From positions 73,514 through 97,513 of the forward strand of contig JAHBXZ010000005.1 in NCBI GenBank assembly GCA_019636215.1: a stretch of 24,000 nucleotides of DNA, in the 5' to 3' direction. Under the pieces are notes generated by a model. That model was not told the DNA's origin. It made no database searches and worked only from the letters and a program-made list of their open reading frames with translations. Positions within the stretch are counted from its first letter, which is position 1; each line of letters starts with the position of its first letter. The stretch comes from Planctomycetota bacterium (GTDB taxonomy: Bacteria > Planctomycetota > UBA8742 > UBA2392). A program made the translations under genes and the position numbers. Of the stretch, positions 1-23,291 are shown one piece after another.

Positions 1-1
1 C

Positions 2-718
2 GTGCGCTTTGGCGCCACCACCCCGCGCGAGGACGCCCGCAGCCTTTCCCCCGCGGCCCAGGACGCCACCACCGGTGTGCTCTCCTGGGCGGGCACCGGG
101 CTGGCGGGTCTGTTCACCCTGCTGCTGTGGATGCTGCTGATCCCGATCTACAGCTGGTACTTCATGGTCGGCTATGACGGCGTGGTGGCCAAGGCCCGGC
201 AGTACCTGCCCGGCGCGCATCGCGAACGGATCGAGCGCATCGCCCGCGAGATTGACGGCATGCTGCGCGCGTTTTTCCGCGGGCGCATCATCGTGGTGCT
301 GATCATCGGCACCATGACAACGGTGATGTACCTGATCTTTGGCGTGAAGTACGCCGTGCTGCTGGGCATGATGGCCGGGCTGGGCGTGCTGATGCCCTAT
401 GCCAGCATCATTGTCAGCTGGATTCCCGCGTTGATCCTGATGGGCATTGCCGGCGATTCCGTCGGTGCGATTGTCGGCATGAGCATTGCCTTTCATGCCA
501 TCCAGGCCATCGAGCAATACGTGCTTACCCCCAAGCTGCTGGGCGACGCCGTGGAGCTGCACCCCGTCACGCTGCTGGTCGGCGTGTTTGTGATGGCCAG
601 CCTGTTCGGGCTGTTCGGGGCACTGCTGGCCGTCCCGCTGACGGCCATTGCCAAGACCCTGGGACGCGAATTTCTGTTGCCCTACTTCAAGAGCCTGGCT
701 GCCGAGAAACCGGGGTAA
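2..718 (+). CDS. AI-2E family transporter (PerM/YdiK-like, UPF0118), 5'-truncated by window edge
   Basis: Open to the window start. Multiple hydrophobic TM segments and the family-typical C-terminal block 'AFHAIQAIEQYVLTPKLLGDAVELHPVTLLVGV...GALLAVPL'. TAA stop at 716-718. Confidence 0.85.
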   Translation: MRFGATTPREDARSLSPAAQDATTGVLSWAGTGLAGLFTLLLWMLLIPIYSWYFMVGYDGVVAKARQYLPGAHRERIERIAREIDGMLRAFFRGRIIVVLIIGTMTTVMYLIFGVKYAVLLGMMAGLGVLMPYASIIVSWIPALILMGIAGDSVGAIVGMSIAFHAIQAIEQYVLTPKLLGDAVELHPVTLLVGVFVMASLFGLFGALLAVPLTAIAKTLGREFLLPYFKSLAAEKPG

Positions 719-741
719 AGAGTGATGCACCAACCCGCGTT

Positions 742-862
742 GAACCACGAATCGACACCAATCTTCGCAAATCAACAGCCATAGACTCGCAGCTCCGCTC
801 GCTGGGTGTCCCCTTCAGGCCAGGATTTTTGATTCGTGCCGATCCGTGAAGATTCGTGGTTC
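742..862. promoter_or_regulatory. Repeat cluster upstream of the NUDIX gene: three 10-bp-phased direct repeats GATYCGTG plus a distal 12-bp inverted partner
   Basis: Direct repeats are gattcgtgcc (831), gatccgtgaa (841) and gattcgtggt (851). gaaccacgaatc (742-753) is the exact reverse complement of gattcgtggttc (851-862). The cluster lies in the 187-bp intergenic gap before the ATG at 906. Confidence 0.35.
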
Positions 863-905
863 CATGCAGTTGCAGTTCAACCCGGAATTCAAAGTCTAAA
901 GTCCA

Positions 906-1400
906 ATGCCACCCGCCCACAAAGACGAAGTGCCCGGTGCCATCCGCGTGGCCGCGCGCGCTCTCATCATTGAGGAAGGCCGTCTTCTGGTCATGACCAT
1001 GCGCGACGCCACCGGTGAATGGTGCGTTACTCCGGGCGGGGGTGTGCATCGGGGCGAGACACTGGGCCGGGGCCTGCGCCGCGAGGTACACGAGGAGATC
1101 GGCATAGAGGTCACGCCCGACGACATCGTGTATGTGCGCGAACTGATCGGCAGCAGCGCAAAGGTACGTTACGGCGGACTCCAGGCCGATACCCACCAGC
1201 TGGAGATCTTCTTTCACTGCAAACGGCGCGGCGAAGTGCGCATGGGCGCAACCCCGGACAGCCACTGCACTGGCTTTGCCTGGGTGCCGCTGAAGGAACT
1301 CAAACAGCGCAACTTCTTCCCGGAGGCGCTGGCGGAGCGCCTGGCCCGGGATGTGCACACCGGCTTCATGCCTCACGGCAACTACCTGGGCGACGCCTAG
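906..1400 (+). CDS. NUDIX hydrolase
   Basis: Complete Nudix box GX5EX7REUXEEXGU, read as 'GGVHRGETLGRGLRREVHEEIGI'. 164 aa, a typical size. Confidence 0.85.
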   Translation: MPPAHKDEVPGAIRVAARALIIEEGRLLVMTMRDATGEWCVTPGGGVHRGETLGRGLRREVHEEIGIEVTPDDIVYVRELIGSSAKVRYGGLQADTHQLEIFFHCKRRGEVRMGATPDSHCTGFAWVPLKELKQRNFFPEALAERLARDVHTGFMPHGNYLGDA

Positions 1401-1428
1401 AACGGGCCCGCGCGGGCAGGAACAGAAC

Positions 1429-2166
1429 ATGCTGCGTGCCGCGCTGGACATCCTGCTTCCGCGCCACTGCCCGGTTTCGCGCCGGCCGCTGCTGGCCGAT
1501 GAGCCCGGCCCCGTGGCACCCGAGGTGTTGCGCGCCATGGCCGTCTGTGGCCCGGACTATTGCTCGCGCTGCGGCGCACCGCAGGGGCCCGGCGTCGGCG
1601 TGGTGGCCGCCTGCGACAGTTGCCGCGCCGCCAGGGACGGCTTTGGCACCACAGAGATCACCGCCGTCGGACGCTACACCGAACCCATGCGCAGCATGTG
1701 CAAGGCCATGAAGTTCGGCAACGCACGCGACATTGCCCGGCCGCTGGCAGCGTACCTGACACAGTTGCTGATGGACCGCGGCGTGGCACAGCAGGTGGAC
1801 GTGGTTGTCCCCATGCCGCTGCATGTGCTGCGACGTTTTGAACGCGGCTACAACCAGGCAGAGCTGCTGGCAGCGCCGATTGCCCGGGCACTGGCCAAGC
1901 CCCTGCTGGCCAACGCCATGCGGCGAACCCGCGGCACCGAGCGCCAGGCCCGGCTCTCACCGCTGGAACGCCGACGCAACGTGGATGGCGTTTTTGTTGT
2001 GCGCCCTGCGTTTGTCGGCACCATCGCCGAAACCAGCGTACTTTTGGTGGACGACGTGATGACCACCGGCAGCACGTTTGCGGCCGCAGCCCAGGCACTG
2101 AAGACCGCAGGAGCCAAGGCCGTGTACGGGGCAATCGCAGCCCGGGCCGCGCTGGATGATGAGTAG
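1429..2166 (+). CDS. comF: ComF family protein (phosphoribosyltransferase domain)
   Basis: N-terminal Cys clusters (CP...CSRC...CDSC) and the C-terminal PRPP-binding motif 'VLLVDDVMTTGSTF'. The ATG at 1429 is preceded by AGGA. The longer ORF start at 1351 overlaps the NUDIX gene and is rejected. Confidence 0.8.
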   Translation: MLRAALDILLPRHCPVSRRPLLADEPGPVAPEVLRAMAVCGPDYCSRCGAPQGPGVGVVAACDSCRAARDGFGTTEITAVGRYTEPMRSMCKAMKFGNARDIARPLAAYLTQLLMDRGVAQQVDVVVPMPLHVLRRFERGYNQAELLAAPIARALAKPLLANAMRRTRGTERQARLSPLERRRNVDGVFVVRPAFVGTIAETSVLLVDDVMTTGSTFAAAAQALKTAGAKAVYGAIAARAALDDE

Positions 2167-2340
2167 CAGACGGGGGCTCGGGAATCGGGGTTCGGTCATC
2201 CCCCGCACCCCGCACTTCGCATCCGGTGCTTCGCACCTCACCGTCTGCCCCGCACTTTTCCGCGTGAGAATCCGCGACCACCTCGCACTATCCCTGAACC
2301 CATGCGCCGGGCATTCCGGCGTTTGACCACGGAGAAACGT

Positions 2341-4056
2341 ATGAAGCGCGCATTCCGCAGCCTTTTTGTCCTGGCACTGCTTGCCTGCCTGCTGGCGCCG
2401 GCCACCCTGACAAACGCCCAGGAGAAGCCGGCCGAACCAAAGGCTGAACCAAAGGCCGAGACCAAGAAAGACCCCAACCAGGTGACCTTCGACTTTGAGT
2501 TCGAAGGCCTGATGTTTGTCCAGACCAAGGTCAACGGCAAAGGCCCCTACAAGTTCCTGTTCGACAGCGGCGCCACGCAGTCCGTGCTGAACGCGCGCCT
2601 GGCCCGCGAACTTGAGCTCAAGCTGCACGACAGCCCGGGCGGTGTGCAGGGCGTGGGCGAGGCCAAAGACGTGAAGATGGTTGTTCTCGACAGCATGGAC
2701 ATCGGCGGCTTTGCCAAGGGCAAGACGGTCGCCGCCAGCATGGATCTGGACCACATGTCCGGCACCATGGGCTATCACATGATGGGCATCATCGGCCAGA
2801 ACGTGATCAAGCTGATGAAGAAGATCGAGATTGACTTCTCAACCAGCAAGATCACCGCCACCAAGTGGGGCGACCGCGAAGCCGGCAAGCCTCAGGACCA
2901 GGACGAAATGCTCGCCCGCATGCTTGAGGGCGGCGGTATGGGCGGAATCCCCGGCATGCCACGCCTGCCCGGCATGCCCGGCGGCCCCGACGACGACGAG
3001 AAAGACCCGGGCAAGGACGACGACTTCAGTTTTGCCCCGGCCATGGGTGCCTACCTGATGCCCGGCACCCGCACCAGCGGCGCGCAGTTCTTCCAGGACG
3101 AGCGCAAGACCGAAGCCGCCCCGGCCCAGGTCACCGAAGGCATGACACTGGACTACACCACCGTCAGCGTGCCGATGCTGGGCGACCTGGTTCCGTACTG
3201 GTACGTCACCGGCACCATCAACGGCCAGGAACGCACATTCATGTTCGACACCGGCGCCTCAATGCTGCTGGCGCTGGGCACGGAAATGTCCACCGAAATG
3301 AAGCTGCCCACCAGCTTCAGCTACCCTGTCAAGGGCATCGGCAAGGGCGAAGCCAAGTCCGGCATGGTGGACAGCATCAAGTTCGGCAACCTGACTGTCA
3401 CCGACACCCCGGCCACCATCATGGACCTGCCCAAGATGAGCGACCAGATGCCGGATATGATCAAGCAGCTGCTGCCCATGCTGGGCAACCGCATCAAGCT
3501 GGATTTCGACGGCATCGTGGGCGTCACCCTGGCCACGCGCTACAAGAAGATGATCGTCAACTCCAAGGCCAAGGACATTGAGTTCGTCCCCTACGCCAAG
3601 GGCGAAGTCAACAAGCTCAACCCCTCCCGCGGCGAGGAATACATGCGCGACGCCGTCGTCCGCACCTGGAACGGCAAGGCCGGCAAGATCGGCCTGAACG
3701 GCGACAGCGTGAAGCTTGACGACTGGGCCGCCCACGGCCTGAAGTCCGGCGGGCTGATGGTCGAAAGCGTCGAAGCCGACGGCCCCGCCGCCAAGGCCGG
3801 CATTGCCAAGGGCGACATCATCACGCACCTGGTGGGCGAAGCCGACCTGCCTGAAATGGAAGACACCAAGGCCGAAGATGGCGACACCGAAATCCGCGAC
3901 ATGCCCGGCCTGATCATCTGGGGCTGCATGAAGGACCCCGGCTATGAGGCCACCCTGCGCATCAAGCGCGGCGACAAGGTGATGGACGTGAAAGTGAAGC
4001 TTGGCGACTACGGCTTCAAGGGCGAGTTCCCGGAACGCTTCAAGCAGAAGAAGTAG
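2341..4056 (+). CDS. Secreted protein with two retropepsin-like aspartyl-protease domains and a C-terminal PDZ domain
   Basis: Signal peptide 'MKRAFRSLFVLALLACLLAPATLTNAQ' with GGAG 7 nt upstream of the ATG at 2341. Two clan-AA catalytic motifs: 'FLFDSGATQSVL' (DSG codons 2563-2571) and 'FMFDTGASMLLAL' (DTG codons 3247-3255). A Gly/Pro/Met-rich acidic linker separates them. PDZ-like 'GLMVESVEADGPAAKAGIAKGDIITHLVG' near the C-terminus. Confidence 0.75.
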   Translation: MKRAFRSLFVLALLACLLAPATLTNAQEKPAEPKAEPKAETKKDPNQVTFDFEFEGLMFVQTKVNGKGPYKFLFDSGATQSVLNARLARELELKLHDSPGGVQGVGEAKDVKMVVLDSMDIGGFAKGKTVAASMDLDHMSGTMGYHMMGIIGQNVIKLMKKIEIDFSTSKITATKWGDREAGKPQDQDEMLARMLEGGGMGGIPGMPRLPGMPGGPDDDEKDPGKDDDFSFAPAMGAYLMPGTRTSGAQFFQDERKTEAAPAQVTEGMTLDYTTVSVPMLGDLVPYWYVTGTINGQERTFMFDTGASMLLALGTEMSTEMKLPTSFSYPVKGIGKGEAKSGMVDSIKFGNLTVTDTPATIMDLPKMSDQMPDMIKQLLPMLGNRIKLDFDGIVGVTLATRYKKMIVNSKAKDIEFVPYAKGEVNKLNPSRGEEYMRDAVVRTWNGKAGKIGLNGDSVKLDDWAAHGLKSGGLMVESVEADGPAAKAGIAKGDIITHLVGEADLPEMEDTKAEDGDTEIRDMPGLIIWGCMKDPGYEATLRIKRGDKVMDVKVKLGDYGFKGEFPERFKQKK

Positions 4057-4078
4057 CCCGGCAGTCCGCGAGACAACC

Positions 4079-4114
4079 CTGGGGCGCCAATCGGCGCCCC
4101 AGTTCTTGTTTTCG
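4079..4114 (+). terminator. Rho-independent terminator after the protease gene
   Basis: Perfect 10-bp stem ctggggcgcc (4079-4088) / ggcgccccag (4093-4102), loop aatc, followed by ttcttgttttcg. Confidence 0.7.
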
Positions 4115-4244
4115 CTACGACATCAGGGAAGGAACAGCCTTCTACTTTCGTTTCACCTTCACTTGACGATTACTGAGCATACAGTTAGGACCATGCACTA
4201 AATGACCAAGCACAAGTAACTTTGTTTGTGATCGGGCGCACAAT

Positions 4245-6521
4245 TTGCTAGTTTGTCGCCAGATGGAGTTCCCAGCCAGACGTCCTGATCCTGCCGAGGC
4301 CCCCAACCCAACCATGAATGCAATGACCCAATCTGCGGCGATTCCTCTTATCGGCACACACCGCAACCTGCGGGCGCTGGTTGATTACAGCGCCGGTTTT
4401 GCCCGCCAGGCCAAGGCTTCCGGCCAGCGCCTTCTGTGGGCGCCGGCCCACGCGCTTGGTGGTTGTGTCAGTCTGCGCACATGGATTCTCGACCAGGCCG
4501 TGCAGGCACTGGGTGAAAACGCCCCCGAGGAAACTTCGCTGCTGCTGTCCGGCGCGGCCGATGCGATTGTCATTATCGACCCGGCCTCGGCCGATGCGGC
4601 CAGCCTGCACTGGTTGACGGATCTGTTGTCGTGCTCGCAGGAAGTCGCTGACTTGGCGGCCATCCCGCCGCTGCCCCAACTGATTGTACTGGCAACCAGT
4701 CGCAGCACAGGCGAGCCTGCGGTTGCCCAGTTCCTGGAAAAGCTGGAATCGCTGGGCGCCGAAGATATCCGCATCGCCGGCACAGAGTCCGGCAACGGCG
4801 ACATCAGGCGGCTGCTGGATCGCAATGACGACCTGCTTGCGGCCGTTGCACTGGCACCTGTGCCACTGACACTGGAAGACCTCAACGCCGTGGCCAGGGC
4901 CAGCGGCAAGAACACACTGCCGGTCAGCGACCTGCTGGATGCCGGGCTGCTGCAGGTGATCGGCGACCTGGTGGTGCCCGCCGCCACCGACGCGCGCAAG
5001 ACCCTGCGCGAGGCCCTGAGCCCCGAATCGCTTTCCCGCGGCGCGGCCTTGCTGCTGCCGATTGTGGAAGCCCGCCACGAATCGCTGCCTGATGCGCGAG
5101 TAGAGCTTGCACTGCGCAGCGGCGACGGCCGGCGCGCGGCCAAGCTTGCCCGTCGCCGCTACGACGAGCACGTCAATGCCAACCGCCTGGAAGAAGCCAT
5201 GCGCCTGCTGGAGCTCGGGCGCGAGTTGCAGTTCCCGATTGAAGGCGGCAAGTACGCCGCGGAAATCGACGAGGCCCGCATTGCCTGGCTGGCGGCACAG
5301 ACCGGCCAGTTCGAGAAGGCCCGCAGTATCGTCACTCGCCTGGCCAAGAACCGCGGTGCCTACGGGCAAAGCGAGTTTGTCCAGCACGTGGCACTTGCCG
5401 GGCGCGAGCTTGCCCTGAAGGGCCAGTATGACGTGCGACTCGCCGACAGCCTGCTGCGCCGCGCGATCCGCCTGGTGGAAGGCGACCTGGATGCCCACGT
5501 TCGCCTGACGCTGCTGCGAGTGGAACTGCTGGCATCGGATGTAATGAAGCTTGAGGAACGTTCCGGCTGGCTGCTGAACCACATCAACGGCGAGATCCTG
5601 GACGAACTTTCGCCGGCCACGCTGGCGCAGTTCCTGCAGGATACCGCACTGCGCATGTGGCAGCGCGACGACGTTCGCGGCGCCATGCGCCGCCTGCGCA
5701 AACTGCTGGTCATGGAACTGGGCGACCGCCGCAAGTCCCGCGCCATGCTGTTGATGGCGCGCTGTCGCCTGTATGTCGAAGACCGCGATGCCTCCGCCAG
5801 GTTCGCCCAGGGCGCGTTGAACCACGCGCTGCGCGCGGCCGACCTAGCGCTGGTGAAGCAGTCGGCGGCGTTTGTCCGTCAACTGCAGCAGCACCAGCCC
5901 CGTGAACTGCCGCCGATTGCGGCGCCGGGCAAGGGCGCCAAGGCGTTCCCGCGCATTCCGGCCATGGCCCAGGTGCAGACCGCGCCGGTTGCGGATGTCA
6001 GCAACGTCTTTGATGTGCTTCAGGCGCGCTTTGGCGTGACCGGCTGGGTGCGGCGCCGCGGCAGTGAAGTGCAGACCCACGGCAAGCCCGGCAACCCATC
6101 CACCGCGGTGTGGGCCTACCAGGAAACTGACGGCCGGCCGGCCCGCGTGGCGGGTTCCGGCGAATCGCCCGGCGCCGTGGCGCTGGCGCGCCAGGAAGGC
6201 AGCGACATTGTGTTCCTGCAGGCCGGTGCTGATTTTGAATCGCGCGCCGATTCCCTGCTGCAGCTGCTGCTTTCCGATCGCGATGAAAACCGCCCGGCCG
6301 GCCCGTTGCGCCGCGCCGACGTGATTGCCGACTACTATCGCCGCGCGCTGGACCACGGCACAGAAAACGGCCTGCACACCACCATGGAAATGCTGTTCAA
6401 CAAGGATGTGCTGATCTACTTCGAGGAACAGGGCATCGGCAAAGACGAAATGGCGCGCAAGCTCGATGTTTCGCGTGCCACCCTGTACCGCATGTACGCG
6501 CGATCCGGCCTGAACATCTAA
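4245..6521 (+). CDS. Large cytoplasmic regulator with a C-terminal Fis/NtrC-type HTH, helical-repeat middle and a degenerate sigma54-activator-like N-terminal region
   Basis: C-terminus 'GKDEMARKLDVSRATLYRMYARSGL' is a typical HTH_8 motif. The N-terminus 'PLIGTHRNLRALVDYSAGFARQA...' resembles the LIGxSxxM entry of bEBP AAA+ modules. No Walker A, GAFTGA or ESELFGH motif is visible. The start is uncertain (ATGs at 4245, 4263, 4314, 4323; no clear SD). Confidence 0.6.
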   Translation: MLVCRQMEFPARRPDPAEAPNPTMNAMTQSAAIPLIGTHRNLRALVDYSAGFARQAKASGQRLLWAPAHALGGCVSLRTWILDQAVQALGENAPEETSLLLSGAADAIVIIDPASADAASLHWLTDLLSCSQEVADLAAIPPLPQLIVLATSRSTGEPAVAQFLEKLESLGAEDIRIAGTESGNGDIRRLLDRNDDLLAAVALAPVPLTLEDLNAVARASGKNTLPVSDLLDAGLLQVIGDLVVPAATDARKTLREALSPESLSRGAALLLPIVEARHESLPDARVELALRSGDGRRAAKLARRRYDEHVNANRLEEAMRLLELGRELQFPIEGGKYAAEIDEARIAWLAAQTGQFEKARSIVTRLAKNRGAYGQSEFVQHVALAGRELALKGQYDVRLADSLLRRAIRLVEGDLDAHVRLTLLRVELLASDVMKLEERSGWLLNHINGEILDELSPATLAQFLQDTALRMWQRDDVRGAMRRLRKLLVMELGDRRKSRAMLLMARCRLYVEDRDASARFAQGALNHALRAADLALVKQSAAFVRQLQQHQPRELPPIAAPGKGAKAFPRIPAMAQVQTAPVADVSNVFDVLQARFGVTGWVRRRGSEVQTHGKPGNPSTAVWAYQETDGRPARVAGSGESPGAVALARQEGSDIVFLQAGADFESRADSLLQLLLSDRDENRPAGPLRRADVIADYYRRALDHGTENGLHTTMEMLFNKDVLIYFEEQGIGKDEMARKLDVSRATLYRMYARSGLNI

Positions 6522-6623
6522 ACACAGGCCGGTTGCCGCCCTACTTCCATCCGGTGCCTGCGCTGCTATCCTTCGCGCCCTCACGGGCACGAAGTGGGCG
6601 CGTTTGGGCGCCCGGAGGCTTCC

Positions 6624-6902
6624 ATGGCAAACCTGATCCGCATTCCCACTCCTCTGCGCAACCTGACCAAGAACGAGGCCGAGGTCAACGTCGAGGCCGG
6701 CACCGTCGGCGCGGCCCTTGAGGCGCTTGAAAAGAAACACGGCGGCATCAAGGCCCGCATCTGCGACGAAAACGGCAACGTGCGCCGCTTTGTCAACGTC
6801 TACGTCAACGACGAAGACATCCGCTTCATGCAGAACCTCGAAACACCGCTGAAGCCGGGCGATTCCATCTCGATTGTTCCCGCCATCGCCGGCGGCTGCT
6901 AG
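6624..6902 (+). CDS. CysO/MoaD/ThiS-family ubiquitin-like sulfur-carrier protein ending ...AGG-C
   Basis: GGAGG lies 6 nt upstream of the ATG at 6624. 'RFVNVYVNDEDIRF...GDSISIVPAIAGG' closely matches the CysO-type pattern (FVNIYVNDEDVRF...GDSVTILPAVAGG). A single Cys codon (6897-6899) follows the GG before TAG. Confidence 0.8.
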   Translation: MANLIRIPTPLRNLTKNEAEVNVEAGTVGAALEALEKKHGGIKARICDENGNVRRFVNVYVNDEDIRFMQNLETPLKPGDSISIVPAIAGGC

Positions 6903-6911
6903 GACGCGGCC

Positions 6912-8282
6912 ATGACTGACCCCGATGGCAAGCGCGTGATCCGCGTCGGCATGCTGGGTTGCGGCGTTGTCGGCGCAGGCCTGGCCAAGCTGATTGCCAA
7001 GCACAGGCCGGACTTTCACCGCAACGGTTTTGACCTGCGCCTGACCCGCGTGGCCGTTCGCGACCTTGCCAAGAAACGCGACTGCGACCTTGGCGGCGTC
7101 AGCGTCACAACCGACGTACGCGCCGTGGCTGACGCCCCGGATATTGACCTGCTGGTCGAAGTCATGGGCGGAACCGGCCTTGCCGTGGATGCCGGCTGCG
7201 CGGCACTGGCGCGCGGCGTTCCGCTGGTCAGCGCCAACAAGGCCGGGCTGGCGCGATCACTGCCCCGGTACATCGAGGCCGGCGCCCAGGGCAAGGCCGC
7301 CATCGGCCTGGAATCCGCCGCAGCGGCGCACATCCCGATTATCGAAACGCTGGAACGCAGCCTGGCCTGCGAAGAAATCAGCCTGATCAAGGGCGTGATC
7401 AACGGCAGCACGAATTACATCCTTACGTTCATGGAACGCGCCGGCTGTGAGTACCCGGCCGCGCTGGCCGATGCCGCCGCCAAGGGCTTCACGGAGGCCG
7501 ATCCCCGCCTTGACGTGGAGGGCATCGACGCCGCCGAAAAGCTGACGCTGCTGGCCTTCAAGGCCTTTGGCGCCTACGTGCCGCCGGACCGCATCCACAC
7601 CGAAGGCATCACGCGCATCACCCAGGCCGACATCCGGCTGGCCCAGGGGCTGGATCACCGCATCAAGCTGGTGGCCGCGGCGCGACGCACGCCGCAGGGG
7701 CTGAACCTGCGGGTTCACCCCGCGCTGATCCACCGCGGCGAGCTTCTGGCCGATGTGGACAGCGAGTTCAACGCCATCATCCTGGAAGGCCCGTCCTTCA
7801 ACCAGTTGACGTTCCTGGGCAAGGGCGCCGGCCAGTTGCCGACGGCCAGCGCGGTGCTGAACGACATCGTCCGCATTGTGCGCTTCCCGGCGGCAGGCAG
7901 CCTGCCCGGCTTCCTGCGGGCCGGTGCCGACAACACCCAGGCGGCGCGGGGCGGCAGCCTGGCGCTGTGTTACTTCGTGCGCATGGGCGTGGCCCAGGGC
8001 GCTGACCGCCAGGTGCTGGCGGGGCTGGGCGGACTGGGGCTGCCGGTGCTGGCACATTCTGCGGTGGACCAATCGGGCCGGCGATTCCTTGGTGTAATCA
8101 CGGACATTGTTGAAGAAAGTCGTATCCTTTCGCTGCTTCCGGAGATCGGGCGGCTGCCGGGGGTGGCAGAGGCGCCCGTCTTTATCCGGCTGGATAAGGA
8201 CAACTATCGTGACATCGTCGATCGCGAACAAAGTGCGTATTTCGGTACCAGCCTCCAGCGCCAACCTGGGCCCGGGGTTTGA
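6912..8282 (+). CDS. hom: Homoserine dehydrogenase
   Basis: N-terminal Rossmann motif 'IRVGMLGCGVVGAGL', catalytic-domain blocks 'VSANKAGLA' and 'GVINGSTNYIL...EADPRLDVEGIDAAEKL', and a C-terminal ACT-like region. Genomic context with thrB. Confidence 0.9.
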   Translation: MTDPDGKRVIRVGMLGCGVVGAGLAKLIAKHRPDFHRNGFDLRLTRVAVRDLAKKRDCDLGGVSVTTDVRAVADAPDIDLLVEVMGGTGLAVDAGCAALARGVPLVSANKAGLARSLPRYIEAGAQGKAAIGLESAAAAHIPIIETLERSLACEEISLIKGVINGSTNYILTFMERAGCEYPAALADAAAKGFTEADPRLDVEGIDAAEKLTLLAFKAFGAYVPPDRIHTEGITRITQADIRLAQGLDHRIKLVAAARRTPQGLNLRVHPALIHRGELLADVDSEFNAIILEGPSFNQLTFLGKGAGQLPTASAVLNDIVRIVRFPAAGSLPGFLRAGADNTQAARGGSLALCYFVRMGVAQGADRQVLAGLGGLGLPVLAHSAVDQSGRRFLGVITDIVEESRILSLLPEIGRLPGVAEAPVFIRLDKDNYRDIVDREQSAYFGTSLQRQPGPGV

Positions 8283-9207
8283 TTGCCTGGCCCTGGCACT
8301 GGAACTGCGCCTGACGGCCGAGGTCGCCTGGTCGGGCGACCGCGTGAAGCTGCATGACTTCACAAGCCCGCTGGCCTGGTGGGCCCAATGCGTGGCGCCG
8401 TTTCGCAGCTACAGCGGCACACTGGTGGACTTCGACGACGAACTGATCGAGAAACCCAACCTGTTTGCCGTGTCTTTCTTCAAGGCCGTGGTGAACGCCG
8501 GGCCCGAGTACAACCTGCCGGCACGGCTGGAGGCAAAGATCCACAGCGACGTGCCGATCGGCCAGGGCCTGGGCAGCAGCGCCGCGGCCGTGGTCGCGGG
8601 GGCCGCCATTGCAGAATCCTGGCGCAAGGGTGCCTATGACGCCGAACAGGTGTTCCAGGCCGCCGTTGAGATTGAAGGCCACGCCGACAACGCCGCGGCT
8701 GCCGCGTTTGGCGGCCTGCAGGCCGCCCTGTTGCAGGGTCGCAAGACGCGCGGGCGCAGCCTGCCCTGGCACTCCAGCCTGAAGGTGGCGCTGTGCGTTC
8801 CCTCTGAGACCCTGAAAGAAAACACCAGCGCCACCCGGCGCTGGCTGCCTGAAAACCTCAAGCGCACGGAAGCCGTCAGCAACCAGCGGTCTTTGTTGAC
8901 CCTGCTGTACGGGCTTGAAACCGGCGACGGCGACGCGATTGCCGCGGGCTTTGAAGACCGCCTGCACGTGCCCCACCGCAAGGCCATGATCGCGGGCTAT
9001 GAGGACATCGTGGGCACGGCGCGCGAAGCAGGCGCGTTCGGTGCAACCATCAGCGGCGCGGGCGGCAGCATGATTGCCATCGGCAACGGCGACATGGCCA
9101 AGGTGGCAGGCGCCATGGCGGAAGCCTACAGGCGCCACGGCATGGAAGCCCGGCCCATGACGCCCGAAGTCGCCAAGCAGGGCCTGAACCAGGAGCCCGG
9201 AGCATAA
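8209..9207 (+). CDS. thrB: Homoserine kinase (GHMP family)
   Basis: 'VRISVPASSANLGPGFDCLALAL' N-terminus and GHMP motif 'PIGQGLGSSAAAVVAG'. Start assigned to the GTG at 8209 (AAGGA 8 nt upstream); the GTG at 8233 is an alternative. The ORF-track ATG at 8107 would add a non-homologous Arg/Cys-rich leader. Confidence 0.85.
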   Translation: MTSSIANKVRISVPASSANLGPGFDCLALALELRLTAEVAWSGDRVKLHDFTSPLAWWAQCVAPFRSYSGTLVDFDDELIEKPNLFAVSFFKAVVNAGPEYNLPARLEAKIHSDVPIGQGLGSSAAAVVAGAAIAESWRKGAYDAEQVFQAAVEIEGHADNAAAAAFGGLQAALLQGRKTRGRSLPWHSSLKVALCVPSETLKENTSATRRWLPENLKRTEAVSNQRSLLTLLYGLETGDGDAIAAGFEDRLHVPHRKAMIAGYEDIVGTAREAGAFGATISGAGGSMIAIGNGDMAKVAGAMAEAYRRHGMEARPMTPEVAKQGLNQEPGA

Positions 9208-9216
9208 CGCAGCAAA

Positions 9217-9244
9217 CAGGAGCCCGGAGCGTAAGCGACGGGTC
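9217..9244 (+). repeat. REP-like element, short form (left flank of RAYT); preceded by a partial direct copy at 9190-9207
   Basis: Sequence identity to 9877-9904 (28/28, inverted) and 18939-18966 (27/28, inverted). 9190-9207 'caggagcccggagcAtaa' compared with 9217-9234 'caggagcccggagcGtaa' matches 17/18. Confidence 0.85.
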
Positions 9245-9303
9245 AAGTCACAATAGAATTTCACCACGCGGCAGCGCTTCCGCAAAGCCAGCAGGGCCGT
9301 GCC

Positions 9304-9822
9304 ATGGCCTTCAACCAGCCCAAGGCCTACCTGATCACGTTCACCTGTTACGGCACGCGTCTGCATGGTGACGATCGGGGCACAGTCGACGATGATCACA
9401 ACATTCACGGCACGCCTGTGCTGCCCACGAACCACGACCAGCAGGACGTTGCGCTTCGCCGGATGAACCACGGGCGTGTGTTGCTTGATGCCCCAATGCG
9501 CACGGTTGTCGACAGGACCATTCGGGGGGTCTGCGATCACCGCGGGTGGGACCTGCTTGAAATCAACGTGCGGACTAACCACGTTCATGTCGTCGTAGCC
9601 GCCCAGTCGAAACCTGAAAAAGTGATGAACGACTTCAAGGCATGGTGCACGCGCAAGCTTCGTAAGGCCGACCTCGCCAAGCCCGCAGCCACGATCTGGA
9701 CCGAACACGGCAGCACCCGTTGGCTGTTTACAGAATCCGCTGTCCGCAAGGCCTGCTTCTATGTGCGCCAGGCGCAAGGACCCGACTTGCCCTGGGTCGA
9801 AGACATGGAGGATCCGAAGTGA
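9304..9822 (+). CDS. REP-associated tyrosine transposase (RAYT) / IS200-like Y1 HUH transposase
   Basis: 172 aa. HUH motif 'NHVHVVVAA', conserved N-terminus 'AYLITFTCYGTRLHGDDRG', C-terminal Tyr context 'ACFYVRQAQG'. Flanked by inverted REPs. Confidence 0.8.
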   Translation: MAFNQPKAYLITFTCYGTRLHGDDRGTVDDDHNIHGTPVLPTNHDQQDVALRRMNHGRVLLDAPMRTVVDRTIRGVCDHRGWDLLEINVRTNHVHVVVAAQSKPEKVMNDFKAWCTRKLRKADLAKPAATIWTEHGSTRWLFTESAVRKACFYVRQAQGPDLPWVEDMEDPK

Positions 9823-9876
9823 CGCCACCTTAGGCGGGCTCGCACCCGCTTGCGCAATGCGAGTCCCCTTTGGCTC

Positions 9877-9904
9877 GACCCGTCGCTTACGCTCCGGGCT
9901 CCTG
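9877..9904 (-). repeat. REP-like element, short form (right flank of RAYT); overlaps the pcm 3' end
   Basis: Exact inverted copy of 9217-9244. The last 5 codons and TAA of pcm (9887-9904) lie inside it. Confidence 0.85.
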
Positions 9905-10537: not shown

Positions 10538-11544
10538 TCCTGCTTCTTGCTGTCCTGCTCGATCTTCTTGATCATTTCCAGCGCGACTTTGCCCGCGCGC
10601 AGGTCTTTCTTCAATTCGCCCCAGGTCTTCAGCGCGTTCATCAGTGTCTGGTCGCCCTGGGGTTCGCTTTTGTCAATCAGACGCTTCAGGTCCTCATACC
10701 CCTTCAGTTCGTCTTTGTTGGCCTTGTCTTTGCGAATGGCCTCAAAGGCTGCCTTGGCCTGCTTGCCAAGTTCGTGGCCCTTGAAATCTTTTTCCATCAC
10801 TTCAAGCGCGGGCATGGCCAAATCAAAGCGTTTGTCGGCCGTCCAGGCGGCAATGCGTTCATTGCGGCGCGTGGCCAGGTCTTTGGCGCGATCCATGATC
10901 AACTGCGCGGACTCGCGTTCAGAATCTGTCAGTTCGCCCGCTGCCAGCTTTTCGGCCTCTGCCAGTGCCGCACCGTATTCGCGCGCGGCGAAGCTGCGGC
11001 CGGCCTTGGCCAGCTTCTCTGCCAGCACCTGCGTTCCCAGGCCGGGGTACACCAGTTTCTTGAGTTCGCGCTGCAGCACGGTGTCGTAGTCGCCGCGGCC
11101 GTAAAACGCGACATTGCCGTCCACGCCGATCACCGTGGTGCGGTAGATCTGGTCCTCGTGCACATAGTGGCCGAAGTCGTTGTCTTCGTCATAGAAGCCG
11201 CCCATCGGCACGCAGTAGGTGATGCCTTCGGCCTTGCAGTAGTGGTGCAGTTCGCGCGGCGTTTCGCGCAGGCGGTGCACGGCAAACACCCAAAGTCCCT
11301 TGCCGCCCCAGGTCTTGAAAGTAGAGGCAAGCTGCGAGGCGATCTTGCGAGAATCAAGGTCCTTGACGTTCCATTCCAGCACGACGATCACGTCGCCCTT
11401 GCAGTCGTCCAGTGTGCGATGAAACTCGTAGGGGTTCACCAGCCGCCCGCCGGCCTTGAACTTGGGCGCGGGCTGGCCGACAACAACCGTGCCCGCGCAC
11501 AACGGCGCGGCCAGCAGCGCAAGCAATGCAACCAGAAAACGCAT
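10534..11544 (-). CDS. Secreted thioredoxin-fold (TlpA/AhpC-like) protein lacking the CXXC motif, with a C-terminal Lys/Glu/Ala-rich helical domain
   Basis: Signal peptide 'MRFLVALLALLAAPLCAG'. It aligns without gaps to the neighbouring paralog across the redox region, but reads 'EWNVKDLDSRK' where the paralog reads 'YWGTR(TGA)GPCVK'. Both share 'YPGLG' and the helical tail. Confidence 0.7.
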   Translation of the reverse strand: MRFLVALLALLAAPLCAGTVVVGQPAPKFKAGGRLVNPYEFHRTLDDCKGDVIVVLEWNVKDLDSRKIASQLASTFKTWGGKGLWVFAVHRLRETPRELHHYCKAEGITYCVPMGGFYDEDNDFGHYVHEDQIYRTTVIGVDGNVAFYGRGDYDTVLQRELKKLVYPGLGTQVLAEKLAKAGRSFAAREYGAALAEAEKLAAGELTDSERESAQLIMDRAKDLATRRNERIAAWTADKRFDLAMPALEVMEKDFKGHELGKQAKAAFEAIRKDKANKDELKGYEDLKRLIDKSEPQGDQTLMNALKTWGELKKDLRAGKVALEMIKKIEQDSKKQE

Positions 11545-11649
11545 GCCGAACAGGATAACAAAGCCGGCCGGACGGTAACCCGTTTTCGGAAATCGAGGTC
11601 GGTCAAAACTGTCGGGCCGCGGTACCGACTCTCAGACCCCGCAACGCAA

Positions 11650-11673
11650 ACGGCCCGGCTTTCGCCGGGCCGT
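11650..11673 (-). terminator. GC-rich hairpin between the two thioredoxin-fold paralogs (possible terminator or attenuator)
   Basis: 10-bp perfect stem acggcccggc / gccgggccgt with a 4-nt loop. The minus-strand tail ttgcgttgc is only weakly U-rich. Confidence 0.35.
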
Positions 11674-11689
11674 GTTTTGAACCGTTGCA

Positions 11690-12685
11690 CTACTTGATCT
11701 CTGAGGCAAGTTTTGCGGCTTCTTCGCCCGCAGCGAGTGCTTCGTTCTTCTTGGCGAAGGTCTCCAGGTTCTTCTTCTTCACCGCCGCGACCTTTTCTTT
11801 CTCGTTGGCCTCAAGCACCTTGGCCAGCGCGTCCCAGGCCTTCAGTTCTTCCTTCACTTCCTTGTCGGCCTTGAGTTCCTTCAGCTCGGATTCGGCCGCG
11901 GTGGCCGCTTCCATGCCCTTGAACCCCTTGCCCGACAGCGTTTCCAGTGCCTTCACGGCCTCGTGGTACCGCTTGGCGCCCTTGGCCGCGTCAATCTTGC
12001 CGCGCAGCGCCGTCACCTTTGATTCCACGCGGGCGATAATGTACTCCGCGTCGGCCGCAACCGCCGCGTCTTCGCCCTTCTTTTCCTTCACCTTGGCGGC
12101 TTCTTCGGCGGCCTTGGCAAATTCGCCGGTGCCGAACAGGACCGCCGACTTCTCAAGGTCCTTCACCACGTCCAGCTTGCCCAAGCCCGGGTACTTGATG
12201 CGCTTGAGCTGGGTTTCAATCACGGCCTCGTAGCCGCTGCGACCCTGCCAGACAACCTTGCTGTCAGGCCCGATCACAAAGGCGTACGGAAGACCGTTAC
12301 CACCCTGATAGTTTTCAAAGCTGGACCCGTTGCGAATCGGCATGGGGAATGTCAGCCCCCTGTCCTTCGCGTACTGCGTAATGTCGTCCAGCGTGCCGCC
12401 CTGGCTTTCTACCAAAAAGATGTTCAGTCCTTTGCCGCCGTGTTTGTTCCAAAGTGCTTGGATAGAAGGCAACGCCTTCACACAGGGCCCTCAGCGTGTC
12501 CCCCAGTACTTGATCAGTACGACTTCGCCTTTGCATTGTTCCATGCTGATGGCTTCGGGCTTGTTCACGCACACCGTCGCACTGAATGCAGGTGCGTCTT
12601 TTCCCGTGATGTCCACCTGTGCTTGCACCACAGGGGCCATCGCCAAAAGCATGCCGCCCAACAGCAGCATGACTACCTTGTTCAT
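11690..12685 (-). CDS. Secreted TlpA-like thioredoxin-fold protein with in-frame TGA at the first Cys of the redox motif (candidate selenoprotein, UGPC), plus a C-terminal helical domain
   Basis: Track ORFs 12491..12685 and 11690..12481 are in the same frame, separated only by TGA (12493-12491) and 3 codons. The joined sequence reads '...KGEVVLIKYWGTR-TGA-GPCVKALPSIQALWNKHGGKGLNIFLVE...GLTFP...GLPYAFVIGPDSKVVW', a full TlpA-like fold. Signal peptide 'MNKVVMLLLGGMLLAMAPVVQAQ' with GGAG upstream of the ATG at 12685. Confidence 0.6.
12459..12484 (-). other. Candidate bacterial SECIS hairpin downstream of the in-frame UGA
   Basis: On the mRNA, UGA is followed by GGGCCCUGUGU, then GAAGGC-GUU-GCCUUC (window 12479-12465). 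This is a perfect 6-bp stem with a GUU triloop starting 18 nt after the UGA. The lower stem is extendable with a mismatch and a bulged U. Confidence 0.4.
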
Positions 12686-12839
12686 CCCATTCTCCAGGTA
12701 TGGGGCCAGCGTTGTGCTGGCTGTTCAATTCGTGTGCCAAACTGACCTATAGCTTACGGCCAAAGTTCCCAACTATGGAACTCGTTCTTCCTATGTTATC
12801 TAGAAGGCCGGAAACGGCGCTCTTGGGTCACCTAAGTCC

Positions 12840-14885
12840 ATGGCACTAGTCACTTTAGATGGCATTTCTGTGCATTTTGGCGGCCCGACCTTGATGCAGC
12901 GGGTCAGCCTCGACATTGAGCCCGGCCACAAAATCGGCCTGATCGGCCAGAACGGCACCGGAAAATCGACCCTGCTCAAGATGATTGTCGGCGAGGCCGA
13001 GCCCACCGACGGCCGCATCGTGCGCCAGCGCGGCCTGAACGTTGCCTACCAGGCCCAGGAGTTGCGCTATGAACCCGGCGCCACGGCCTTTGAGGAAATG
13101 CGCCGGGTGTTCACGCAGGACCTGCAGCGCCAGCAGCGCCTGCACGAGATTGAAGAAGCCCTCGCCACCGCCGACGCCGACGAACGCCCCAAACTGCTGG
13201 CGCACTACGACAAGTTGCAGGCCGAGCACGACGCCCGCAGCGGCTATGACGTGGACCGGCGCATCGGGACGGTGCTGACCGGCTTGGGCTTGCCCGAGAA
13301 AGCGTGGACGCAACCCATTGCCAGCTTCAGTGGTGGCGAACGCAACATCATCGGGCTGGCGCGCATTGTGCTGCAGGAACCCGAGCTGATGCTGCTGGAC
13401 GAGCCCAGCAACCACCTGGATATGGAGGGCATAGAGTGGTTCATCAGCTTCCTGCGCCAGACGCGCGCAGCCGTGGTGATGGTCAGCCACAACCGCCACC
13501 TGCTGGATGCCACCGTGGACCAGATCTGGGAGCTGCACGGGCGCAAGATCACGCAATGGACCGGCAACTACAGCGATTTCGCGCGCCAGAAGCAGGAGGC
13601 GCTGGCGCTGCAGGAACGCCAGTTCAAATCGCAGCAGCGGCTGATCAAGCGCATCCAGTTCCAGGCCCGCCGCCTTCTGGATATGGCCAAGGCCTATGAC
13701 GACCCCGGCCAGGCCAAGCGCGCCAAGGCGATGCTGCAGCGCATTGAACAGATGGACAAAGTTGAGGCCCCGGACAAAAGCGAACACCGCTTTCACGCAA
13801 ACCTCAGCGGCGCCAGCCGGCACGGGCACATCGCGCTGGAAGTGTCGGGGTTGACAGTCGCAGTTTCAGCCCGGAGCGCAAGCGACGGGGTAGTTGCCAT
13901 CAGCCCCGAATCTGCGCCGCAACGCATCCTGTTGAACGCCGCCAATCTCGAAATCCACTTCGGCCACCGCGTGGCGCTGGTCGGCCCCAATGGCTCGGGC
14001 AAGACCACGCTGTTCAACGCGATCCTGCGTCACGCCAGTTGGGACAACCCCGACATTGACGTGCAGGACGGGCCGTTTCACATCAAGGGGCGGCTGCGCG
14101 TGGGCAAAAGCGCCAAGATCGGCGACTACAGCCAGATCCACGACCAGAAGCTGCCCCACAACGAAACGCTGATCACCTGGCTGATGAACGTGACCGGCCT
14201 GCGCTTTGAGCCCGCCAGCGCGATGCTGCACCGGTTTCTGTTCAACCGCGACGACCTCGAGCGGCCCATCGGCACGCTAAGCGGCGGCGAAAAATCGCGC
14301 CTGCAACTGGCGCGGCTGGTGCACGAGAAAGTCAGCTTTCTGATGCTGGATGAACCCACCAACCACCTGGACATCCAGGCCTGCGAACAGCTTGAAGAAA
14401 TGCTGGAAGAGTACGAAGGCACGCTGCTGGTGATCAGCCACGACCGCTACTTCCTGGACAAGCTGGTCAATCGCGTCGTGGAACTGAAAGACCAGCAGCT
14501 TCAGGTGTTTGAGGGCAGCTTCGCGCAATGGTGGCAGCAGCGTCACCAGCAGGCCCAGGAAGGCCGCAAGGGCGCGCTGCAACTGCACAGCCAGGCCAAG
14601 GCCTTTGAGCAATCCGCCGGTGCCGCGCAGCGCGAAGCCCAGAAGGCGCACCAGCGTGAACAACACCGGCTGCGTACGCAGATCAAGGCCATTGAAGGCA
14701 AGATTGAAAGGCTCGAGGCCAGGCAGAAAGAACTGGAGCAGAAGCTGGCCGAGGCCTTCAGCGCCCAGGGCACCCAAAGCGCGCACGAGGCCGCGCACAT
14801 CCACGCGGCCTTCGAGGCCACAAGAAAAGAAATCGCCGACCTGTACACCGAATGGGAAGCATTGGCCGAGGCGGTGGAGGGGTAG
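12840..14885 (+). CDS. ABC-F family ATPase (two ABC domains and a C-terminal coiled coil), carrying an in-frame REP-derived insert in NBD2
   Basis: Walker A 'GQNGTGKST' and 'GPNGSGKTT', signatures 'FSGGERNII' and 'LSGGEKSRL', Walker B 'LMLLDEPSNHLD' and 'FLMLDEPTNHLD'. No TM segments. Gln/Glu/Arg-rich helical tail. Confidence 0.9.
   Translation: MALVTLDGISVHFGGPTLMQRVSLDIEPGHKIGLIGQNGTGKSTLLKMIVGEAEPTDGRIVRQRGLNVAYQAQELRYEPGATAFEEMRRVFTQDLQRQQRLHEIEEALATADADERPKLLAHYDKLQAEHDARSGYDVDRRIGTVLTGLGLPEKAWTQPIASFSGGERNIIGLARIVLQEPELMLLDEPSNHLDMEGIEWFISFLRQTRAAVVMVSHNRHLLDATVDQIWELHGRKITQWTGNYSDFARQKQEALALQERQFKSQQRLIKRIQFQARRLLDMAKAYDDPGQAKRAKAMLQRIEQMDKVEAPDKSEHRFHANLSGASRHGHIALEVSGLTVAVSARSASDGVVAISPESAPQRILLNAANLEIHFGHRVALVGPNGSGKTTLFNAILRHASWDNPDIDVQDGPFHIKGRLRVGKSAKIGDYSQIHDQKLPHNETLITWLMNVTGLRFEPASAMLHRFLFNRDDLERPIGTLSGGEKSRLQLARLVHEKVSFLMLDEPTNHLDIQACEQLEEMLEEYEGTLLVISHDRYFLDKLVNRVVELKDQQLQVFEGSFAQWWQQRHQQAQEGRKGALQLHSQAKAFEQSAGAAQREAQKAHQREQHRLRTQIKAIEGKIERLEARQKELEQKLAEAFSAQGTQSAHEAAHIHAAFEATRKEIADLYTEWEALAEAVEG
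13861..13918 (+). repeat. REP-like element, long form, inside the ABC-F coding sequence
   Basis: 'cagtttcagcccggagcgcaagcgacggggtagttgccatcagccccgaatctgcgcc'. It matches 55/58 to the reverse complement of 15151-15208 and shares the core with the short-form REPs. Confidence 0.85.
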
Positions 14886-14930
14886 GGCGTTGCGCGGGTA
14901 ACCGCAAGTGGCCAACAGCAGCCCACACGT

Positions 14931-14955
14931 CAGCCCGGCCTGCAAAGGCCGGGCC
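14931..14955 (+). repeat. 25-nt hairpin element CAGCCCGG-NN-TGCAAA-NN-CCGGGCC (may also terminate ABC-F transcription)
   Basis: 'cagcccggcctgcaaaggccgggcc': 8-bp stem, 6-nt loop, 46 nt after the ABC-F stop. No strong T-tail. Confidence 0.45.
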
Positions 14956-15087
14956 TTCGGAACGCCCGATTTCGAATCACGAATGCGGGTCGGGCGAACA
15001 ACCGCAACCGGGTAGAGACCGACGTAGCTGGCGACCGCCATCCGATCGCGTTGGGCGGCCACACTTGCGCGACCTGCATTGTGACGA

Positions 15088-15112
15088 AGGCCCGGGGTTT
15101 GCACCCCGGGCT
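15088..15112 (-). repeat. Inverted second copy of the 25-nt hairpin element
   Basis: The reverse complement reads 'cagcccggggtgcaaaccccgggcc'. It is identical to 14931-14955 except cc->gg and gg->cc, paired changes that keep the stem intact. Confidence 0.45.
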
Positions 15113-15150
15113 GACGCGGGAACATCGGCTTGTGATGGTTGGGCGCCCTT

Positions 15151-15208
15151 GGCGCAGATTCGGGGCTGATGGTAACTACCCCGTCGCTGACGCTCCGGGC
15201 TGAAACTG
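15151..15208 (-). repeat. REP-like element, long form, intergenic; inverted mate of 13861-13918
   Basis: 'ggcgcagattcggggctgatggtaactaccccgtcgctgacgctccgggctgaaactg' matches 55/58 to the reverse complement of 13861-13918. Confidence 0.85.
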
Positions 15209-15232
15209 CGGGGCTTCTGTTTGCTCCTTGGG

Positions 15233-18822: not shown

Positions 18823-18874
18823 GGGTTCTGGGTTCTGGGTTCTGGGTTCTGGGTTCTGGGTTCTGGGTTCTGGG
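18823..18874 (+). repeat. Heptamer microsatellite (GGGTTCT)x7 plus GGG
   Basis: Perfect tandem copies counted directly, giving eight GGG runs with 4-nt spacers. It starts 9 nt after the sfsA stop. Confidence 0.95.
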
Positions 18875-18910: not shown

Positions 18911-18938
18911 CCGATTCCCGATTCCCGATTCCCGATTC
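18911..18938 (+). repeat. Heptamer microsatellite (CCGATTC)x4 (GGGAATC-phased on the minus strand)
   Basis: Perfect tandem copies counted directly. It directly abuts the REP copy at 18939. Confidence 0.95.
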
Positions 18939-18966
18939 GTCCCGTCGCTTACGCTCCGGGCTCCTG
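18939..18966 (-). repeat. REP-like element, short form, immediately after the murJ stop
   Basis: 'gtcccgtcgcttacgctccgggctcctg' matches 27/28 to 9877-9904. Confidence 0.85.
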
Positions 18967-23097: not shown

Positions 23098-23119
23098 ACC
23101 GACCCGCCAACAGCCCTTT

Positions 23120-23226
23120 CAGCCCGGAGCGGCAGCGACGGGGTAGTTGGCCGCTGACTACCCCGTCGCTCTAAACGCAATGCGTTTCCGCGCGACCGTC
23201 GCTTCGCGACCTTCCGCTCCGGGCTG
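23120..23226. repeat. Inverted REP doublet (REPIN-like nested hairpin) between convergent genes
   Basis: Outer arms cagcccggagcgg (23120-23132) / ccgctccgggctg (23214-23226) are exact complements. Inner arms agcgacggggtagt (23134-23147) / actaccccgtcgct (23157-23170) form a perfect 14-bp stem. An extra palindrome aaacgca-a-tgcgttt lies at 23172-23186. Confidence 0.75.
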
Positions 23227-23291
23227 ACACTGCTGTGCTTGCGGCCAACCGGGCACGGACGGCGGGCCAGAGGCCCGCGGTCCGAACTCCC

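Follow-up and report, generated by a model that had tools for sequence, protein, structure and literature searches.

The 172-aa gene at 9304-9822 and the short hairpin repeats around it probably form a REPtron of class 3 of the HUH-Y1 proteins, consisting of a single-locus gene and a cognate family of short hairpin repeats (probability roughly 0.75). The window in which they lie is the whole 24,000-nucleotide stretch that was analysed. It has a G+C content of 64%, and its ABC-F protein and the neighbours of this protein find matches solely among Planctomycetes MAGs; as judged from the sequence, the source is an uncultured Planctomycetota bacterium. As a clean new example of a rare branch already described, the locus, whose gene looks domesticated, adds no new type of system. 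What can be regarded as established is the protein's fold with its catalytic residues, as derived from homologues and a predicted model, the hairpin architecture, the bracketing of homologous genes by hairpins with compensatory stem variants, the dispersal of copies within the window and the single fixed position of the gene. A sequence-only reading of the locus had seen a classic REP/RAYT arrangement. It was right in spirit, as inverted cognate repeats with further dispersed copies enclose the gene in a REPtron-type rather than an IS200-type layout, and wrong in calling the system classic and its repeat family unassignable.

The gene order around the class 3 gene is thrB-gene-pcm. The features of the locus and the repeat copies in the window are listed here.

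9190-9216, + strand: decayed REP-A copy at the thrB 3' end, reduced to its foot, 5' arm and TAA loop
9217-9244, + strand: left REP-A arm of the exact 28-bp inverted repeat, caggagcccggagcgtaagcgacgggtc, with foot CAGGAG and hairpin 9223-9242
9304-9822, + strand: 172-aa class 3 HUH-Y1 (TnpA_Y1 / RAYT-like) gene, an ORF recognised by Pfam PF01797, motifs and model
9877-9904, - strand: right arm of the 28-bp inverted repeat (REP-A), exact reverse complement of caggagcccggagcgtaagcgacgggtc, with hairpin 9879-9898
13859-13918, + strand: REP-B 60-nt unit with hairpin 13870-13889, in frame within the ABC-F gene
15151-15210, - strand: REP-B 60-nt unit with hairpin 15180-15199, convergent intergenic, 23 nt past the stop of a Trypsin_2 gene
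18937-18967, - strand: REP-A singlet with hairpin 18941-18960, its foot CAGGAG abutting the murJ TGA stop
23105-23240, no strand assigned: composite REP-B doublet in the gap where an SDR gene and an enoyl-CoA hydratase gene converge

As the sequence-only reading had it, the 172-aa HUH/Y1 gene lies inside exact inverted repeats; repeat finding extends the 28-bp pair to 35 nt at 94%. The 22-nt core of the repeat, AGCCCGGAGCGNAAGCGACGGG, was searched for with a tolerance of at most one mismatch and with 100 shuffles as control. Six matches were found in the window (9221+, 9879-, 13868+, 15180-, 18941- and 23121+), compared with none in the shuffles, which bears out the claim of a dispersed core. 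Half-copies of the core lie at 9190-9203 and 23214-23226. Cleavage in the loop was considered as the origin of these partial copies and rejected, since plain decay or tandem duplication explains the alignments just as well. The repeats had been described as dispersed through the window; dispersed they are, but all are confined to 9.2-23.3 kb. No copies were found in 1-9189 or in a further 9 kb upstream, which together make up 18 kb to the left of the gene, a result that weighs against the REPtron reading. On the right, a 270-aa protein gave no matching record for an extension of the contig.

The copies fall into two subfamilies, REP-A and REP-B, which have the same hairpin and different flanks. 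REP-A has the foot caggag (at 9217, 9904 and 18967). REP-B has the foot tttcag and a 3' GTAGTT tail (13859-13918, 15151-15210 and 23117). The two 60-nt REP-B units form an inverted pair (95%) 1.2 kb apart. The composite doublet contains a full (+) hairpin (23123-23142) plus a split (-) copy (23153-23166 and 23214-23226), and it folds as a single long hairpin (DNA, -48.9 kcal/mol, z -8.0). Against the REPtron reading, REP-B, with its other foot and tail, could belong to another enzyme.

Each repeat unit consists of a 5' foot and a 20-nt hairpin made up of 4 bp, a tandem G·A, 2 bp and a GNNA loop, so that six Watson-Crick pairs accompany the tandem G·A. The left-arm hairpin reads CCCG-GA-GC-GTAA-GC-GA-CGGG, and the G·A/GNNA form is available on one strand only. 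As DNA, a single unit folds weakly (-5.3 kcal/mol, z -1.9 to +0.6). As RNA, the sense strand gives -13.5 kcal/mol (z -3.8) and the complement -8.6 kcal/mol; the stronger fold of the sense strand indicates that the structure is strand-specific.

Other repeats were also observed in the window. Two perfect heptamer tandem arrays, (GGGTTCT)x7.4 at 18823-18874 and (CCGATTC)x4 at 18911-18938, sit between sfsA and murJ and adjoin a REP-A copy. Short-read contigs of other samples (those with SfsA) break at these heptamers, and (CCGATTC)n is present too in the related species L216 (at 8767). A 39-nt inverted pair (737-775 / 829-867) between the AI-2E transporter and NUDIX genes contains the 20-mer CCACGAATCGACACCAATCT, which recurs in the thrB-pcm spacer of L216 (6869); its presence in both marks a second dispersed repeat family common to the two species. 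A further inverted pair (14928-14959 / 15085-15116) is a perfect hairpin with an 8-bp stem and the foot cgTCAG, which resembles the REP-B foot. Its (+) copy is GCCCGGCC-TGCAAA-GGCCGGGC and its (-) copy GCCCGGGG-TGCAAA-CCCCGGGC; as the two differ in both arms, the change in the stem is compensatory. Contig L212 begins exactly at this element.

Over residues 59-132, the 172-aa protein matches the Pfam domain PF01797 (Y1_Tnp) with 35.9 bits, the cut-off being 23. Its HUH motif is H93-V-H95 and its catalytic residue Y153, with Q158, in the motifs RTNHVHVVV, IWTEHGS and FYVRQAQ. H93, H95 and Y153 never vary among 25 aligned homologues, Q158 is near-invariant, and the N-terminal 35 residues, including 8-35, are conserved. 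With the Pfam score above its cut-off and these residues invariant, the assignment to HUH/Y1 made from the sequence alone stands. Because the match in a PDB sequence profile search was merely marginal (E = 0.35), comparison of structures was needed. The AlphaFold model (pLDDT 87.5) has a helix at 144-156 over Y153. All 30 Foldseek hits in the PDB with E <= ~0.002 (TM 0.45-0.64) are either IS200/IS605 TnpA (ISDra2, IS608 and Sulfolobus) or the E. coli RAYT 4ER8, with a probability of 1.0 for 2XMA, 2F4F, 2VJV and 4ER8. The predicted model, these hits and the invariant residues together point to a ferredoxin-like HUH-Y1 fold. The closest relatives of the protein show at most 55% identity, are mostly proteins of Planctomycetota and Acidobacteriota MAGs, and carry the generic COG label RayT as their JGI name. 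The family comprises at least 833 clusters at 50% identity (E <= 1e-30). Several of the top class 3 profile matches (P0241, P0243, P0244, P0259, P0338 and P0346) lie inside predicted proteins of 850-1579 aa; such very long matches may be fusions or read-through gene calls.

HUH-Y1 proteins are divided into class 1 (IS200), class 2 (RAYT) and class 3 by Quentin et al. 2018 (BMC Genomics 19:475, PMC6006769), who called class 3 small and "previously unknown". Their set held 24 class 3 proteins, the IS or REPtron nature of which was left open, and class 3 was suggested as a possible link between IS200 and domesticated REP enzymes (PMC6006769). TnpA_Y1 proteins of this class have the motifs NHVH, W[TA] and a Y----Q of the YV..EQ type, a length of ~178 aa and an extended conserved N-terminus. 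They occur at ~1.2 copies per genome in Planctomycetes, Acidobacteria and a few Proteobacteria, and their genes are flanked by atypical imperfect hairpins with the 5' foot CnGA, present in many copies (PMC6006769). The protein described here has NHVH, W-T and Y----Q (YVRQAQ), 172 aa and conserved residues 8-35. Like class 3, the locus also combines the host phylum, a near single copy and several imperfect flanking hairpins with a foot.

The repeats point to the same class. Table S1 of that study gives the flanking structures CACGAGCCGGAAGCGTGAGCGACGGGT and ACGAGCCGGAAGCGTCAGCGACGGGC for Planctomyces limnophilus (ADG69454.1), CCGAGCCGCGACCGTAAGGGAGCGGA for Legionella and CAGAGCCGCGACCGTTAGGGAGCG for Solibacter (PMC6006769). 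The P. limnophilus structures and the core in the window are near-identical to each other, and the hairpin architecture is that of the Table S1 entries, whereas the foot is CAGGAG or TTTCAG here and not the stated CnGA. The Planctomycete version of the hairpin (CCCG-GA-GC-GNNA-GC-GA-CGGG) and the Legionella/Solibacter version (CCGC-GA-CC-GNNA-GG-GA-GCGG) are three compensatory pair swaps apart. As both the motifs and the Table S1 structures match, gene and repeat both belong to the described family, and a repeat family that had seemed beyond assignment can be placed. Stem covariation, doublet geometry, phylum-wide distribution and insertions in coding sequences are absent from Quentin et al. 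2018 and are given here. In the literature after that study, no experimental work or activity data on class 3 were found.

The REP/RAYT systems of class 2 (E. coli yafM, PDB 4ER8; Pseudomonas REPINs) share with this locus a single-copy HUH-Y1 gene in inverted cognate repeats. They share also the fold and the dispersal of singlets and inverted doublets, mostly downstream of genes, as known from Proteobacteria; in the window this dispersal was observed across 14 kb. The label "classic", however, does not fit. The Y-motif here is YV...Q and not the YIxxNP of RAYTs, and the NCBIfam RAYT model (NF047646, REP_Tyr_transpos) gives 23.6 bits, under its equivalog cut-off of 80. The hairpin is weak, short and imperfect, unlike the long palindrome of REPs, and has no 5' GT[AG]G tag; REP-A lacks GTAG, and in REP-B it lies 3' of the hairpin, not 5'. 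TIRtrons/TIRYTs are Y1 genes that lie in inverted repeats; these repeats make up moderately abundant families, with Acidobacteria among the hosts (Di Nocera et al. 2013, PMC3733652). Their TIRs differ in that they were described as long and largely unrelated to hairpin REPs and were not tied to the class 3 hairpin architecture (PMC3733652). Rickettsia palindromic elements resemble the present repeats in that they are palindromic and lie in frame inside genes; no link has been drawn between them and the class 3 hairpin architecture.

An ordinary autonomous IS of the IS200/IS605 type would explain the gene and its two terminal hairpins as one mobile unit, and the other copies as solo ends or MITE-like elements. 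Like the TnpA of IS608 and ISDra2, the protein has the HUH-Y1 fold (these being the best Foldseek hits) and a Y...Q motif, and the repeat is a hairpin with a 5' foot. The Y----Q motif is closer to class 1 (IS200) than to RAYT, and the IS200 model is the best-scoring NCBIfam model (NF033573, IS200/IS605 transposase), although its 35.5 bits lie under the equivalog cut-off of 55. The left and right ends of IS200/IS605 elements are recognised on the same strand, as seen in the IS608 and ISDra2 structures. The hairpins flanking the present gene, by contrast, are on opposite strands, and the locus differs further in having no tnpB and in its dispersed repeats without a gene. No plasmid matched the protein when plasmids were searched, and among viral contigs the core was found in three, none of which has the gene. 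This explanation is regarded as quite improbable; copy number and the history of the locus, which also bear on it, are treated below.

Hairpins of this architecture recur at homologous loci. Scanning metagenomes yielded 80 loci whose encoded homologues have 42-52% identity, and these loci were searched together with L122 and the window (82 loci) for the class 3 architecture, with the stem sequence left free. Perfect hairpins numbered 114, compared with 0 in shuffles. The 401 matches to the six fixed bases have a bimodal distribution, with 114 at zero mismatches and 61 at one mismatch (chance expectations 0.1-0.3 and 2-4, respectively). A hairpin lies within 250 nt of the gene in 43 of the 80 homologous loci. 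The nearest upstream hairpin is on the "+" strand in 32/40 and the nearest downstream hairpin on the "-" strand in 25/36, and the foot-outward bracket of the window is the predominant geometry. Thirteen stem types, which are compensatory variants, were found. Proteins with a common stem type are 55.5% identical, as opposed to 48.5% otherwise, a difference that none of 2000 permutations reached. This tracking of stem type and protein is the cognate pairing of gene and repeat that is expected of a REPtron. At one locus (L175), GCCC/CC hairpins bracket the gene and CCGG/GC doublets lie at 4216-5353, 1216-2353 nt downstream of the gene; the two hairpin types suggest two systems in one genome.

An identical protein is encoded on 14 contigs from several samples, all with the context thrB-gene-pcm, and no paralogue of more than 55% identity was found among 5.8 billion proteins. 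The gene thus appears to be single-copy at one fixed locus, in line with the single RAYT copy that had been expected. Position 9890 is C in the window and G in nine other contigs of the same species, where the inverted repeats match at 27/28; the repeat called perfect is so in the strain of the window, but not in these nine. In the right hairpin the change hits the loop at its first base (GTAA -> CTAA), and in pcm it is synonymous (GCG -> GCC). Unusually low diversity near the gene (1 difference in 800 nt) was considered and set aside: with a background of ~0.5% outside one variable block, it is not significant. That strain-variable block (11500-12750) has up to 84 differences per 250 nt compared with ~1 elsewhere. 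An AhpC/TSA-like gene of 330 aa (L001, 12387-13379) is present in L001, L003 and L006 and absent from the window, L002, L004 and L007. A 97-aa fragment with 90% identity (P0015) was rejected as an orthologue, as it comes from this very locus in the same species and carries homopolymer frameshifts.

Three related species (76-78% DNA identity, ABC-F 80-88%) keep the synteny and lack the class 3 gene. The segment 9208-9874 is absent at their syntenic thrB-pcm junction, so the gene was either gained or lost at that site. L215 has no repeat here; only 3 nt separate thrB from pcm, and pcm ends in FVPLVS and a stop. In L216, the thrB end carries a fuller but decaying REP, CAAGAGCCCGAAGCGTAAGCGACGAAG, that encodes KQEPEA and a stop. 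The pcm end of L216 carries a perfect REP, 28/28 identical to the window copy, that encodes QEPGA and a stop, with no RAYT gene there; the two REPs are 170 nt apart, and their spacer holds other repeats. The presence of a perfect REP without a RAYT gene at the locus indicates that copies persist without a local gene, which counts against the REPtron reading. The alignment of L216 with the window breaks off at 9207 and restarts at 9875, which makes 9208-9874 (spacer, left REP and gene) specific to the lineage of the window. As judged from this comparison, the pcm-end REP is older than the species split and has retained its 28/28 identity. Perfect hairpins number six in the window and 0, 1 and 0 in ~22 kb of each of the three relatives.

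The absence of 9208-9874 from the junction in the related species speaks for an autonomous IS200/IS605-type element. Against such an element, the gene occupies one locus in all 14 contigs and has no close paralogue, and the mean of 1.2 copies per genome in class 3 (PMC6006769) likewise speaks against it. The same comparisons bear on whether the locus is a decaying relic, with an inactive gene and repeats that are immobile fossils. Decayed copies occur at 9190 and at the thrB end of L216, the right-arm loop is mutated in most strains, and one assembly has frameshifts in homopolymer runs. The frameshifts (L218) are probably errors, since they lie in homopolymers of a short-read unitig. Moreover, no catalytic residue is lost, the ORF does not vary across the 14 contigs, six hairpins are perfect, the 60-nt REP-B pair is 95% identical, and repeat content differs between species (6 vs 0, 1 and 0). 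A relic is therefore very improbable, and a class 3 REPtron remains the preferred reading.

The repeats contribute to the ends of host genes. Both thrB and pcm end in five residues, QEPGA, that are encoded by REP-A. For thrB (homoserine kinase, ending at 9207), the decayed copy at 9190 provides these residues along with the stop codon, and the stop TAA of pcm (9887-9889) lies within the GTAA loop of the right hairpin. The copies had been said to lie always at gene ends or between convergent genes. This is contradicted by the REP-B unit at 13859-13918, which is in frame inside the 681-aa ABC-F ORF (12840-14885, codons ~340-360). The insert falls between LEVSGLT and RILLNAANLEIHFG, the start of the second ABC domain, and EttA of E. 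coli and distant ABC-F homologues have no insert at the corresponding site. Close relatives have species-specific ABC-F inserts of 6-70 residues. Those of L216 and L217 are palindromic in DNA (GGGCATAGGGCATGGAG... / ...CTCCAATGCCCTATCCC), and the L217 insert contains PSPMPQA repeats. Within the clade, in-frame inserts have a hot spot where the second ABC domain begins (window 13840-13930; L215-L217 ~11021-11200).

At least 120 stretches, from at least 72 species-representative assemblies, contain the core with all 20 fixed bases exact. Among the matches listed, at least 68 of the 72 core-bearing assemblies are Planctomycetota, and the taxa include Gemmataceae, Pirellulales, Planctomycetaceae, Thermoguttaceae and Phycisphaerae. 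The 120 listed stretches all come from genomes other than the window's own. Conservation across them is limited to the core; the two loop bases are free and the foot depends on the genome (CnGAG 46, ACnAG 61). In these listed genomes, adjacent hairpins are paired tails-inward in 22 cases and heads-inward in none, with spacers of 2-54 nt, and six pairs are direct tandems. The tails-inward doublet has the geometry that brackets the class 3 gene. In one Gemmataceae contig (L063, 5393-5540), five direct tandem cores occur with a period of ~31 nt. A RAYT homologue accompanies the core in only 1 of the 120 listed stretches, which is expected for dispersed repeats, yet gives little direct linkage of gene and repeat.

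The breadth of this conservation, with 20 fixed bases exact in at least 68 Planctomycetota assemblies, would also be in keeping with hairpins that are primarily host RNA or DNA elements under selection (3' stabilisers, terminators or protein-binding sites), the Y1 gene being a passenger. A tandem G·A with a GNRA-type loop is a typical stable RNA motif, and the fold is stronger in sense than in antisense (-13.5 vs -8.6 kcal/mol). In addition, the six hairpins of the window all have the sense orientation relative to the nearest 3' end of a gene, and the pcm-end copy matches at 28/28 positions between species with an overall identity of ~78%. A general bias for the transcription sense was not borne out in the other genomes. 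When orientation was determined at the 120 listed loci with a GC3-based gene caller, singlets near 3' ends were sense in 27 cases vs 21 antisense (p = 0.47). Searching Rfam gave no family that matches the hairpins, and no tRNA genes were found; the hairpins also have no U-tract. Against a passenger gene, the stems co-vary with the lineage of the adjacent Y1 protein, and the geometry of bracketing is fixed. A primary role as host elements is accordingly considered unlikely.

By analogy with TnpA of IS608 and ISDra2 and with TnpA-REP of E. coli, the REPtron would operate as follows. The class 3 protein would bind the repeat hairpin on single-stranded DNA. It would then cut and rejoin the DNA beside the hairpin through Y153, while H93 and H95 would hold a metal ion during cleavage. 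Such cleavage and rejoining may spread single units and tail-to-tail doublets, mostly to sites just past stop codons.

A broader proposal, put forward tentatively and rather doubtful at present, is that the hairpin with its 20 fixed bases exact is common to class 3 systems throughout the phylum. Enzyme and hairpin would then be an ancient pair, the variable foot a retargeting guide, and the repeats elements that were repeatedly built into proteins. The basis for this is the occurrence of the hairpin in at least 68 Planctomycetota species assemblies of both classes, with the foot and two loop bases variable. If the foot acts like the guide tetranucleotide of IS608, a short guide would redirect cleavage with the enzyme-hairpin pair unchanged. 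In that case the tolerated ABC-F loop, and the C-termini of thrB and pcm with their stop codons, would be repeats built into proteins.

No branch of the HUH-Y1 proteins has been studied less than class 3. The locus and the survey give a precise target for biochemistry, a 20-nt G·A/GNNA hairpin with a variable foot and a fixed foot-outward geometry. They also present short repeats that reshape housekeeping genes by new C-termini, stop codons and an in-frame insertion.
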